Assembly: GCA_020845975.1 (NCBI GenBank)
Contig: JADLET010000084.1
Span: 2,509-66,508, forward strand
Length of the DNA stretch: 64,000 nucleotides
Reading direction: 5' to 3'
Source: Gammaproteobacteria bacterium
GTDB lineage: Bacteria > Pseudomonadota > Gammaproteobacteria > SZUA-140
This document shows positions 13,575 to 46,768 of the stretch, one piece after another; positions within the stretch are counted from its first letter, which is position 1; the number at the start of each line of letters is the position of its first letter. Made by a program: the position numbers and the translations under genes. Below the pieces are notes generated by a model. It saw only the letters and a list, made by a program, of their open reading frames with translations. It had not been told where the DNA came from and ran no database searches.

Positions 13575-14483
<909 letters not shown>

Positions 14484-14608: not shown

Positions 14609-16042
14609 TCAGAACGGCAGCACCAGCGTCGAATCGATCGCCAGCAGAGCGCGCCGGAACACCTCCTGCACGCGCTTCAGAGCGGCGGCATCGTCCGCCT
14701 CGAAGCGGATGATCAGGCAGGGCGTCGTATTGGACGCGCGCACCAGGCCCCAGCCGTCGGCGAAATCCGCCCGCAGGCCGTCGATGATCGACACCTGCGC
14801 GTCCGGGAAGCGGGTCGTGGCGAGAAACTTCTCCATGAACACATGATGCATCCCTTCGGCGAAGTCGACCCTCAGCTCCGGCGTCGCTACCGCATCCGGC
14901 AGCGCAGCGAAAACCTCGGTGGCGGAACGCGGGTCGGCCGCCAGGATCTCGAGCAGGCGCGCCGCGGTATACAACGCGTCGTCGAAACCGTACCAGCGCT
15001 CCTTGAAGAAGATGTGCCCGCTCATCTCGCCGGCGAGCGGCGCCCCGGTCTCCTTCATCTTGGCCTTGACGAGCGAATGGCCGGTGCGCCACATGAGCGG
15101 ACGGCCGCCGTGTTCCTCGATCACGCGCGCGAGATGACGCGAGCATTTGACGTCGAAGATGATCTCGGCGCCGGGATTGCGCCCGAGCACGTCGATGGCG
15201 TACAGCATCATCTGCCGGTCGGGCCAGATCACGCGCCCGGTGGCGTCGATCACGCCGAGGCGGTCACCGTCTCCATCGAAGGCCAGACCAAGATCCGCCT
15301 TGCGCTCCTTGACGGCCTGGATCAGGTCTTCGAGATTCTCCGGCTGGCTCGGATCCGGATGATGATTCGGAAAATGGCCATCGACCTCGCAGAACAGCTC
15401 GACCGGCACGCAGCCGAGGGCACGCAACAGGTCCGGCGCCACGGCGCCGGCCACCCCGTTGCCGCAATCGACCACCAGTTTCAGCGGGCGCTTGAGCCGG
15501 ACGTCGCCGGCGACACGCCGGATGTAATCCTCGCTGATGTCATGCGTGCGGTACCCGCCCTCCTGCGCCGCGCTGACCAGATCGCCGGATTCGATGCGCT
15601 GGCGCAGGCGCTGGATGCCCTCTCCCGCCAGGGTCTCGCCACCGATCATGATCTTGAACCCATTGTACTCGGGAGGATTGTGACTGCCCGTCACCATTAC
15701 GCCGGTACCCGTCTTGAGCGCGTGCGTGGCGTAATACAGCAGCGGAGTCGGCGCCAGCCCGATGTCGATCACGTTGATCCCGGTGGAGCGGATGCCGCGG
15801 GCGAGCGCGGCGAGGAAACCGGGACCGGACAGTCGTCCATCGCGTGCCACCACGGCGGCGTTCAGGCCGCGATCATGCGCCTCGCTGCCGATGGCTCTGC
15901 CTATGGCGTACACGACATCGTCGGTGAGCGTCTGCCCAACGATGCCGCGAATATCATAGGCCTTGAAGATTGAAGCGGACAGCACCGGCAATTCACTCAC
16001 CTGAATACCGCCCTCGCCTCCCGTTGTTTTTTCCCGCCCCAT
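14609..16042 (-). CDS. algC: Phosphomannomutase/phosphoglucomutase (AlgC/ManB-type) catalytic region
   Basis: LSASIFKAYDIRGIVGQTL...TGSHNPPEYNGFKI...DGDGDR...VRASNTTP are the classic alpha-D-phosphohexomutase motifs. Internal ATG (MGREKTT...) has GGAGG 6 nt upstream. Synteny dut-algC-argB matches Pseudomonas. Confidence 0.85.
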   Translation of the reverse strand: MGREKTTGGEGGIQVSELPVLSASIFKAYDIRGIVGQTLTDDVVYAIGRAIGSEAHDRGLNAAVVARDGRLSGPGFLAALARGIRSTGINVIDIGLAPTPLLYYATHALKTGTGVMVTGSHNPPEYNGFKIMIGGETLAGEGIQRLRQRIESGDLVSAAQEGGYRTHDISEDYIRRVAGDVRLKRPLKLVVDCGNGVAGAVAPDLLRALGCVPVELFCEVDGHFPNHHPDPSQPENLEDLIQAVKERKADLGLAFDGDGDRLGVIDATGRVIWPDRQMMLYAIDVLGRNPGAEIIFDVKCSRHLARVIEEHGGRPLMWRTGHSLVKAKMKETGAPLAGEMSGHIFFKERWYGFDDALYTAARLLEILAADPRSATEVFAALPDAVATPELRVDFAEGMHHVFMEKFLATTRFPDAQVSIIDGLRADFADGWGLVRASNTTPCLIIRFEADDAAALKRVQEVFRRALLAIDSTLVLPF

Positions 16043-17041
16043 CGTTGTTCCTCCACCTTCTCTGTCTTCCGGCGGACGACCCGCCGTAATACGTTCAATC
16101 ATCGGCGCAAGTTCGCGCAGGGCCACCGGATAGCGGTCCAGCGCGGCATCGAGCCGCCATACATCATACGCCGCATGCTCGAGCGTGCGCAGATCACGCC
16201 TGAGCACGCGCGCCAGCAACGCGAATCCGCCGTAAATCGCCAGCGCTACCAGCGCCAGTGCCGCAGCCGCGGCGATCAGCAGTGCTGACTGCCCGGCCGG
16301 CTGCCTGGCGGGCAGCGGCCAGTAGCTGAGACGCCAGCGCGTACCCTCCAGAGAGATCTCTCGCGGCGCCGCCTGTCGGCCCGGCTGCCCCGGCGTGCGC
16401 GCGAGCACGAGCACACTTCCATCACCCAGCGCCTGTTGCAACTCCGCGTATCCCGCCGCCAGGCTCAGGTCCCGTAAGGGAGCCTGGATCTGATCAACAT
16501 CGAACGACACCAGCAGGTTTCCCGCCAGCGGACGTTCTCCCGCGGACGGACGCACCGCCACCACAACGTCGAAATGCTGCTCCGGGCTCTGGAACAGATG
16601 GACCTCGAGCGGTGGCGAGTTACCCACCTCCATTTGCGCGATCAGCTCGAGGTCAGCGAACCCGAGCTGGGGAAAAGCACCCGCCGGCGGCAATTCACGT
16701 CCGGAGACAGTCAGAACAACCCGGGTGGCGCCGGGGATCAGTCGGGCAATCGCCTGTTCGCGCGCGCGCAACTCCAGCACATCATCATCCTGCACAACCC
16801 GCAGGGTCTCCGTTTCCTCGGCGAAGACCTGCACCTGGCGACGCAGGCCTTCCAGCCTGGATGTCAGCGTTTGCTGCAGGGACGCGGCCTCGGCGGCGGC
16901 AGTGCGTACCTGCTGCTCGGCCAGTGTGCGGGACATGCCGTCGATGGCGACCCAGACCGTCACGCCCACGGCCAGCGCGGATACCGCGAACAGACCCACG
17001 CCGCAGCGGGCAAGGCTGATCCGTGAACCGGTCTCAGACAT
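16043..17041 (-). CDS. In-frame N-terminal extension of the algC ORF: two-TM membrane domain with ~220-aa periplasmic loop (no stop codon before the algC start)
   Basis: Continuous stop-free frame of 333 codons ahead of the AlgC core. TM1 LFAVSALAVGVTVWVAI and TM2 ALLIAAAAALALVALAIYGGFALLA. Either a genuine fusion or an upstream gene reading through. Confidence 0.45.
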
Positions 17042-17115: not shown

Positions 17116-17571
17116 TCAATGACGGCCGGAATGACCGAAGCCGCCGTCTCCGCGATCACTGCGATCGAATTCATCCACGATCTCGAATTTCGCCTTCACG
17201 ACCGGCACGAACATCATCTGCGCAATGCGCTCACCGACGGCGATGGAAAACGGCTCCCGGCCACGATTCCAGCACGATACGAACACCTGCCCCTGATAAT
17301 CGGAGTCAATCAGACCGACCAGATTGCCCAGCACGATGCCGTGCTTGTGTCCCAGACCGGAGCGCGGCAACAGCACGGCGGCGACGCTGCCGTCGCCGAT
17401 ATGGATCGCGAGGCCGGTCGGGATCAGGTGCGTCTCACCCGGACGAATCTCCAGCGGAGCATCGAGACAGGCGCGCAGGTCCATCCCCGCCGCGCCTGCG
17501 GTCATGTATTCCGGCAGGGGGAATTCCGTACCCAGCCGGGAATCAAGAATCTTGAGCTGCACCTTGTGCAT
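17116..17571 (-). CDS. dut: dUTP diphosphatase
   Basis: [36 protein letters not shown] parallels E. coli Dut. 151 aa. Confidence 0.95.
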
Positions 17572-18754
17572 GATATCTCTCCGCTATCAATCTGATGATG
17601 TCGTACCCCAGCTTGCGCTTGGAGGCGCGCGGCAGGTCCGCCTGCCCGCCGTTCCAGAACAGGGTCACCTCGTTTTCGTCACTCTCGAAGCCGGTATCTT
17701 CCCGTCCGACCAGGTTGGCGACCACCATATCCAGTCTTTTGCCCTGCAGTTTCGCGATGGCATTGCGCGCAAGATCTTCCGTCTCCGCGGCAAAGCCCAC
17801 CATATACGGCGCGACAGGCAGGGCCGCGATCTCACTCACGATGTCAGGAGTCCGTTCCATCTCGAGCGTTAGCGCCATATCATCCTTCTTGAGCTTGCGC
17901 GGGGAAGGCTGGCGCGGGCGATAGTCCGCCACCGCCGCCGCCGCGATAAAGATATCGCAGCCAGCCAGATTGAGCGCGCAGTGCCGCATCTCTTCGGCCG
18001 TGGCGGCCTCGACGCGGCGCACACCCGCCACCAGCGGCTGTTCGACCGGCCCGCTGATCAGGGTCACGCGCGCACCCGCCGCCGCGGCGGCATTCGCCAG
18101 CGCATAGCCCATCTTTCCCGAGCTGCGGTTGGACACAAACCGCGCCGGGTCGATCGGTTCGCGCGTCGGGCCGGCCGTCACCACCACCGACAGGCCCTGC
18201 AGCGGACCAGTCCCCAACAGATTCGCCGTCAGCGCGGTCAGCTCTTCTGGCTCCAGCATGCGTCCCGCGCCGTTCTCACCACAGGCCTGATCACCGACAC
18301 CGGGACCGAACAGCCGCACGCCGCGCCGCTCCAGCGTCGCGATATTGGCGCGCGTAGCCGGGTGATCCCACATCGCGTGGTTCATCGCCGGGGCCAGCGC
18401 CAGCGGCGCAGCAGTAGCGAGACACAGGGTGGACAGCAGATCATCGGCGAGACCCGCGGCGAGCTTGGCGATCAGGTGGGCAGAGGCCGGGGCGATCAGG
18501 ACGAGGTCCGCCCAGCGCGCCAACTCGATATGCCCCATGACCGTCTCGTCCTCGGGATCGAGGTGACGGGTATGCACGCGACGGCCGGACACTGCCTGCA
18601 AGGTCAGGGCGGTGATGAACTCGGCGCCGGCCCGTGTCAGGACCACCTCCACCTCGGCGCCCTCGGCACGCAGCCGCCGCACCAGGTCGGGCGCCTTGTA
18701 GGCGGCAATGCTGCCGCTGACCCCGAGAAGAATCTTTTTGTTTGCCAGACGCAT
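17543..18754 (-). CDS. coaBC: Bifunctional phosphopantothenoylcysteine decarboxylase/phosphopantothenate-cysteine ligase
   Basis: N-terminal flavoprotein [23 protein letters not shown] plus C-terminal CoaB domain. 403 aa. Overlaps the dut start by 29 nt. Confidence 0.9.
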
Positions 18755-46401: not shown

Positions 46402-46768
46402 TGAGGTGGGAGCCGGCCTGTAAGCCGGGTTCTGTCGTGGACAGTCATTCATCTGGGACACGCGTTACCGCGCGCCTCAAGCGACCTACCCGGGAACAGT
46501 GCGGGCCGCACCAATGTTCCCCTATTTGGTCTTGCTCCGGATGGGGTTTACACTGCCACTGGTGTTACCACCAGCGCGGTGCGCTCTTACCGCACCATTT
46601 CACCCTTACCCGCCACCTCACGGCGGCAGGCGGTATATTTTCTGTTGCACTGGCCGTCGGCTCACGCCGCCCAGGCGTTACCTGGCATCCCGCCCTATGG
46701 AGCCCGGACTTTCCTCCTCCTCCTGCCGCTTGAGGCGACAGGGAAAGCGACTGTCCGGCCGACTCCCG
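46402..46768 (-). ncRNA. rnpB: RNase P RNA (bacterial type A, M1 RNA homologue)
   Basis: The reverse complement contains the universally conserved blocks GGAAAGTCCGGGCTCCATAGGGC, AGGTAACGCCTGG, CAGTGCAACAGAAA, GGGTGAAA.GGTGCGGTAAGAGCGCACC and CCCGGGTAGG.CGCTTGAG, aligned to E. coli M1 RNA. P1 pairs GGAGTCGGCC with GGCCGGCTCC. Confidence 0.9.

Follow-up and report, generated by a model that had tools for sequence, protein, structure and literature searches.

The window analyzed here, a 64,000-nucleotide stretch of contig JADLET010000084.1 from an uncultured gammaproteobacterium, carries on its minus strand an algC gene whose open reading frame (ORF) runs uninterrupted through 810 codons. We are highly confident that this ORF encodes a true long, membrane-anchored AlgC-type phosphomannomutase/phosphoglucomutase (PMM/PGM) as defined by Qian, Fei and Galperin, which probably gives rise to two products and whose N-terminal module would act as a ligand-responsive sensor. 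The 333-codon extension preceding the enzyme is regarded as genuine coding sequence because its frame is conserved, its ratio of nonsynonymous to synonymous substitution rates (dN/dS) lies below 1, its invariant residues are kept, and AlphaFold models it with a confident fold. The parts of the gene are arranged as follows, with pLDDT denoting the predicted local distance difference test score of the AlphaFold2 models.

14609..17041, minus strand: long-form algC ORF, 810 codons plus stop, with an ATG start (ATG at 17039-17041, stop at 14609-14611)
16943..17011, minus strand: first transmembrane segment (TM1, about residues 11-33), from Kyte-Doolittle hydropathy and a continuous helix at 10-74 in the models
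16286..16942, minus strand: predicted periplasmic sensor domain of dCache fold (about residues 34-252)
16211..16285, minus strand: second transmembrane segment (TM2, about residues 253-277), from hydropathy and a helix at 251-297 in the models
16082..16210, minus strand: cytoplasmic juxtamembrane two-helix segment (about residues 278-320), from the AlphaFold2 models, with near-invariant D283
15977..16081, minus strand: flexible linker (about residues 321-355), with pLDDT <50 at 325-348
16050..16054, minus strand: internal Shine-Dalgarno (SD) sequence GGAGG, with a 7-nt spacer to the internal ATG
16040..16042, minus strand: internal ATG, codon 334 (Met334), start of a possible soluble 477-aa PMM/PGM
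14612..15976, minus strand: alpha-D-phosphohexomutase core of four domains (residues 356-810), Pfam PGM_PMM_I-IV
15674..15691, minus strand: catalytic phosphoserine loop TGSHNP (residues 451-456), columns T451 to P456 invariant across 65 fused homologs

The original prediction, made from the letters of the DNA, had drawn attention to this uninterrupted frame, and all of its coordinates proved right, the minus strand being left unstated. It had also held that a stop-free run of this length would be improbable by chance. For the 999-nt extension itself this stands: dinucleotide shuffles contained a mean of 7.5 in-frame stops, none of 5000 was stop-free, and base composition alone gives P ~1.4e-4. 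As evidence of coding, however, length alone is unreliable, because 48 stretches of the window (63% GC) go 333 codons or more without a stop and because a 376-codon antisense ORF (14843..15973, plus strand), almost certainly a by-product of high GC, lies wholly within the PMM core of algC. Given this antisense ORF inside the same gene, ORF length was rejected as insufficient proof of coding. The frame is unbroken in five lineages, namely the window and the relatives L001, L002, L019 and L020, which have a complete 5' region in their assemblies and share 78-85% identity with the window over the full-length protein. When the window, L001 and L002 were compared with one another, at synonymous divergence (dS) of ~0.4-0.5, dN/dS was 0.35-0.42 for the extension versus 0.12-0.13 for the core, showing that the extension is under purifying selection, weaker than that on the core. 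Every family-invariant residue is retained in the window's extension, and GC content by codon position follows a coding pattern along the frame, with third-position GC (GC3) of 0.74 in the extension versus 0.84 in the core. The position of the long start is likewise conserved as ATG, ATG and GTG across the window, L001 and L002, with GTG in L001.

The predicted bitopic character of the extension, with two transmembrane segments around a periplasmic loop of ~220 residues, is supported by both hydropathy and structural modeling. Kyte-Doolittle analysis detected exactly two hydrophobic segments (~11-33 and ~253-277) flanking ~220 residues, and the N-terminus, short and positively charged, is predicted to lie in the cytoplasm. 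AlphaFold2 modeled the N-terminal part with a pLDDT of 77.6 from 22 homologous modules and the full-length protein with a pLDDT of 87.5 from 65 homologs, the core lying mostly above 90. In the modeled layout, helix 10-74 carries TM1 and runs into the periplasm, where an alpha/beta domain extends to ~242; helix 251-297 joins TM2 to a cytoplasmic extension and is followed by helix 309-320, disorder at 325-348 and the enzyme. Structure comparison assigned the periplasmic domain to the dCache fold, with KinD (4JGO) and DctB (3BY9/2ZBB) among its closest relatives at sequence identities of 8-15%, in agreement with the sensor-like nature originally proposed. Modeling thus supports a bitopic module consisting of TM1, a ~220-aa periplasmic dCache-fold domain and TM2. 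Within this domain, E146, G174, Q203 and W236 are family-invariant and H148, H156 and E200 near-invariant; E146/H148/H156 together with E200/Q203/W236 are candidate ligand-pocket residues.

The fold assignment rests on structure comparison, as the corresponding sequence profile search was uninformative: the profile of module alignment A1 matched PDB sequences at noise level alone (E >= 0.1). Pfam identified nothing in residues 1-333, and its dCache_1 model (PF02743; gathering score 45 bits) had no match to the window's module at E up to 1. Among the 22 homologous modules, dCache_1 matched 10, with a best E of 3e-5, and stayed sub-threshold elsewhere at 20-28 bits. A HAMP domain was considered for the juxtamembrane helices and rejected, there being no match in the window's module or the 22 homologs at E up to 1; residues 278-320 are simply helix-turn-helix shaped in the model. 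Word-indexed protein searches were also uninformative, returning one fragment for the 333-aa query and two matches for the 22-sequence module profile, probably because Ala/Leu-rich words saturate the index. Aligning the extension to databases had been suggested as a check, and an exhaustive HMMER run that took just the extension as query recovered 301 cluster representatives at E up to 1e-3.

Within the enzyme, Pfam recognizes PGM_PMM_I, II, III and IV at residues 358-797 (E = 3e-35, 2e-30, 2e-23 and 2e-13). The serine of the TGSHNP loop is the one that we take, from established family knowledge, to be the catalytic phosphoserine. The best solved relative of the core is the PMM/PGM of Pseudomonas aeruginosa (1K35; 610 bits, E = 2.8e-182), compared with 226 bits for XanA. 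Although the PgmG equivalog model NF046027 is the best NCBIfam match, its 515 bits fall under the 600-bit cut-off; the core resembles AlgC and is not a PgmG equivalog.

The original prediction considered a mutase fused to a membrane sensor unusual, which has to be corrected, since this architecture was published in 2019 for eight gammaproteobacterial orders. Qian, Fei and Galperin described "long" membrane-anchored AlgC as two transmembrane segments, a periplasmic dCache domain with KinD and DctB as nearest relatives, a flexible linker and PMM, encoded in coaBC-dut-algC-argB clusters, and they advanced the idea that envelope signals regulate PMM (bioRxiv 10.1101/589796). The same study documented 868-aa algC ORFs in PAO1 and PA14 that had long been truncated to 463 aa, so the extended Pseudomonas annotations tentatively mentioned in the original prediction are real. 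It further reported the loss of the extension in some pseudomonads, an RNA-seq hint of a second, shorter product and, in Lysobacter, both production of full-length Le2152 (Western blot) and a requirement of the gene for twitching motility (bioRxiv 10.1101/589796). Nitrosococcus halophilus and N. watsonii long PMMs are in its Table S3 (bioRxiv 10.1101/589796); our homology test used N. oceani and N. wardiae, which belong to the same genus but are other species, and Le2152 and PA5322 were compared by description. In BLASTP, the window's module matched the long PMMs of N. oceani (E = 9e-18) and N. wardiae (E = 1e-16) over ~250 residues. Moreover, the in-frame extension found in L001, L002, L019 and L020 is also present in 108 of the 119 best homologs in a full-protein search, which are 780-908 aa long, have the PMM domain after residue 300 and include N. 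oceani and N. wardiae. Combining the enzyme core, a ~200-aa periplasmic domain that is membrane-anchored and of dCache fold, the linker, the gene cluster and a homologous module, the window gene is an ordinary member of the published long AlgC family and already known. NCBI nr already holds an identical 810-aa protein, recorded on two contigs as a PMM/PGM from a gammaproteobacterial metagenome-assembled genome (MAG). The literature searched yielded no subsequent study of what the module does.

Lysobacter enzymogenes Le2152 (772 aa) shows the same order of parts (transmembrane segment, ~200-aa dCache domain, transmembrane segment, linker and four-domain PMM), and its family has the same coaBC-dut-algC-argB cluster and the same sensor structural relatives, a shorter second product having been raised there too. 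The window differs in its host, an uncultured gammaproteobacterium, in the conserved internal SD-ATG within its linker, and in the linker itself, which has ~25-35 disordered residues, whereas that of Le2152 has ~55 and is Pro-rich. Part of the family linker motif is kept in the window as the remnant 'IQVSEL' (residues 345-351, ~15989-16009, minus strand), downstream of the internal Met. P. aeruginosa AlgC (PA5322), an 868-aa ORF studied as the 463-aa enzyme, is the closest solved relative of the window core and, according to Qian et al., to whose description the likeness is limited, combines a dCache extension with an internal Met392 that starts an active short form. The dCache sensors KinD, DctB, PctA, Mlp37 and DvhD (9RC2) share the fold, comprising a long N-terminal helix with a membrane-distal and a reduced membrane-proximal alpha/beta module, as well as the two framing transmembrane helices. 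At the low identities given above, they nevertheless differ from the window in output, which is here a monomeric metabolic enzyme and not a kinase, methyl-accepting chemotaxis protein or cyclase. The short cytoplasmic XanA/ManB enzymes, such as Xanthomonas citri XanA (5BMN), have the same four-domain fold and catalytic loop but are more distant (226 vs 610 bits); XanA has no membrane module, and its neighborhood is xanB/cpsB according to Qian et al.

The internal ATG at 16042 with its GGAGG was present as originally predicted, and the proposal that the core could be made alone from it is supported by conservation. The ATG is kept in all five fused lineages, each time behind a purine-rich SD that is exactly GGAGG in four of them; in the module-less relative L003 the same ATG is the sole start of a 477-aa algC, and some relatives are annotated at exactly 477 aa. 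The GGAGG overlaps Glu-Gly/Ala-Gly-Gly codons. Of 317 in-frame ATGs internal to the putative genes of the window, only 3 have a comparable SD. In the AlphaFold2 model, Met334 lies midway along the disordered linker. Synonymous-site conservation near the internal start (0.62 vs an average of ~0.46 in 30-codon bins) is slight and was given no weight. The internal Met does not extend to the whole family: a Met <=35 residues upstream of the PMM domain occurs in only 43 of 132 fused homologs. On these sequence grounds, a soluble 477-aa enzyme from the long gene is plausible. Short AlgC in P. aeruginosa is tied to internal AlgR-dependent promoters; in the window, a search limited to the sigma-70 consensus found no matching promoter for the short form within the ORF.

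According to the reading we prefer, a full-length, membrane-tethered enzyme from ATG 17041 would probably coexist with a soluble 477-aa enzyme from the GGAGG-ATG at 16042. A small ligand would bind the periplasmic domain and change mutase activity, oligomeric state or simply membrane localization. The flow of mannose-1-P and glucose-1-P into envelope polysaccharides would thereby be adjusted.

Close relatives sharing the neighborhood RadC, coaBC, dut, algC, argB, DUF4124 and TauE vary in the state of the sensor.

Window, L001, L002, L019 and L020: intact fusion
L022:244-246: long algC, otherwise collinear, interrupted by an in-frame stop immediately ahead of TM2
L003 (3958-4003), L023 (1597-1625) and the P0118 contig: module absent
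P0008 contig: 246-nt gap alone between dut and algC

The module-less relatives have 72-87% core identity to the window within the same neighborhood. In L003 (82% core identity), 43 nt separate dut from a short algC; in L023 and the P0118 contig, dut overlaps the short algC. The L022 stop is probably a true nonsense allele and not a read error, because P0122, a metagenomic fragment of independent origin, terminates at that residue too. These losses and the raised dN/dS suggest that the module is under relaxed constraint in this clade, where the internal start would keep the enzyme safe. Two points here seem to go beyond the 2019 paper: the internal SD-ATG is lineage-specific, and within the clade the sensor occurs intact, nonsense-cut or deleted.

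Several observations weigh against a ligand-responsive long enzyme with two products. The window's long AlgC is known here from genes alone, and by sequence its module falls below every Pfam and NCBIfam threshold. Selection on the extension is ~3 times more relaxed than on the core, and the module appears dispensable in this clade, being deleted or interrupted in several close relatives. Since PMM/PGMs are monomeric, there is no obvious route by which dimer-based Cache signaling could reach the enzyme, a problem raised by Qian et al. themselves (bioRxiv 10.1101/589796). The long ORF has no recognizable SD at its own start; this says little in this genome, because argB and coaBC are likewise without an obvious one. 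Given the minority of fused forms with an internal Met, dual expression would be lineage-specific at best. Public annotations of two intact-frame relatives also begin the gene later: L001 is called from the internal ATG at 477 aa, and L002 at 601 aa. These late calls (L001:4001-5434 and L002:4001-5806) leave 700-1080 nt after dut seemingly non-coding.

The mechanism is where the most serious competition arises, because the module also exists outside the fusion. Many module relatives are proteins of 330-450 aa without PMM motifs that carry a conserved acidic tail, F-M-x-x-D-S-x-x-V-E-E-L. In alignment A2 (columns ~415-432) the motif, [LM][FY]Mx(1,2)DSxxVEEL, marks the end of the cytoplasmic linker in module-only and many fused forms, and it may be a docking motif. 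A genome scan with A2, the module-only alignment, identified 15 loci, comprising 12 module-only genes, two fusions (L015 and L018) and one split form (L016); the query biases the scan toward module-only genomes, so that 12 of 15 is no frequency estimate. The module-only genes (L004-L014 and L017; e.g., L005:4501-5754, L009:4474-5628 and L011:4333-5571) encode 325-449 aa and have their own stop. They stand in the order coaBC-dut-module-argB and either overlap argB or end 39-182 nt ahead of it, leaving no space for a PMM, whose absence was judged at the dut-argB locus only. Their hosts are 12 species-level genomes, mostly Thiohalomonadaceae: one MAG of Thiohalomonas denitrificans, several from Thiohalomonadaceae and further gammaproteobacterial ones. 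Judged by dN/dS values of 0.04-0.35, these genes are under purifying selection. Their homology to the fused modules spans 361 columns in hhalign (E = 1.5e-73, probability 100%), and they keep the invariant E..H..H, E..Q and W residues. None of the NCBIfam models covers them, and Qian et al. 2019 contains no mention of them (bioRxiv 10.1101/589796).

Two further arrangements extend this picture. At L016:5700-5760, module and PMM are encoded by two ORFs: a purine-rich stretch precedes an ATGA in which the TGA ending the module ORF (P0123, 410 aa) and the ATG opening the PMM ORF overlap, suggesting that two polypeptides are translationally coupled. Additionally, seven module relatives (P0148, P0157, P0205, P0241, P0250, P0255 and P0258) carry GGDEF in place of PMM and match the window's module with phmmer E values from 9e-18 to 4e-9. 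As GGDEF is a classical signaling output, these fusions support a signaling role of the module. Occurring alone, split with ATGA or fused to GGDEF, the module looks like an autonomous unit, another point that seems to go beyond the 2019 paper.

Since split and module-only forms exist, a protein-protein mechanism in trans is a serious alternative to cis allostery. We tentatively propose, at somewhat less than even chances, that the TM-dCache-TM-linker module is self-sufficient and works together with PMM without necessarily being covalently joined to it. The module would then recruit or bind a partner through its cytoplasmic tail and would not pass a conformational signal into an attached enzyme, while in the window's lineage the internal SD-ATG would let one gene yield both partners. 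No description of such a self-sufficient, trans-acting module was found in Qian et al. or the other literature searched. A rival explanation, which we consider rather unlikely, holds that the sensor is autonomous and the PMM fusion incidental, of the Rosetta-stone type. The sensor would contact PMM in trans or another partner, and the relevant enzyme would mostly be the soluble 477-aa form. This explanation agrees with ours on the identity of the gene and differs solely on mechanism. It draws on the module-only genes between dut and argB, their selection, homology, invariant residues and conserved C-terminal motif, on the separate ATGA-overlapping genes of L016, and on PMM-only loci in the same synteny. 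It is countered by the fusion being the majority state among full-length homologs, by the full-length protein and twitching requirement in Lysobacter, and by the window linker, in which 'IQVSEL' is the mere remnant of the conserved motif.

Far less probable is the view that the 477-aa enzyme alone is made and that the upstream 999 nt are an untranslated leader or a decaying sensor relic that has not yet acquired a stop. The strong SD at the internal start with none at the long start, the raised dN/dS and lower GC3 of the extension, and the nonsense and deletion alleles in close relatives would fit such a relic. Yet dN/dS remains well under 1 at the divergence given above, no frame-breaking indels have arisen over 333 codons in five lineages, and all family-invariant residues as well as the long-start position are conserved; the structure model is confident, and argB and coaBC show that an obvious SD is also missing elsewhere. 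That the long frame is an assembly or sequencing artifact, such as an indel hiding a stop between two genes, has a negligible chance of being right: nothing specific supports it beyond the source being a metagenome-assembled genome, a type that can carry indels, while the identical 810-aa protein is recorded on two contigs and the frame continues through the junction in four other assemblies with codon-for-codon alignment.

The neighbors of algC in the window all lie on the minus strand and, by Pfam, in the order coaBC-dut-algC-argB, the cluster typical of long AlgC.

17543..18754, minus strand: coaBC, Pfam Flavoprotein and DFP
17116..17571, minus strand: dut (dUTPase), upstream neighbor, Pfam dUTPase, E = 7e-37
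13575..14468, minus strand: argB-type amino-acid kinase, downstream neighbor, Pfam AA_kinase, E = 2e-45

The gap between dut and the algC ATG is 74 nt. coaBC and dut overlap by 29 nt (17543-17571, minus strand), as they do in relatives, an arrangement compatible with co-translation in the cluster upstream of algC. Elsewhere in the window, a bacterial class A RNase P RNA was found at 46405-46766 on the minus strand (Rfam RF00010, 345.7 bits), and ARAGORN found no tRNA genes across the 64 kb.

The gene is worth annotating at full length (810 aa) with a note on the internal start. Even where the frame is intact, automatic annotation of some genomes still picks a late start (477 or 601 aa). Fused, split, sensor-only, enzyme-only and nonsense variants of this locus together form a comparative set for distinguishing action in cis from action in trans. 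Long AlgC, as we read it, would place a sensor on a checkpoint enzyme for the precursors of alginate, lipopolysaccharide and exopolysaccharide.

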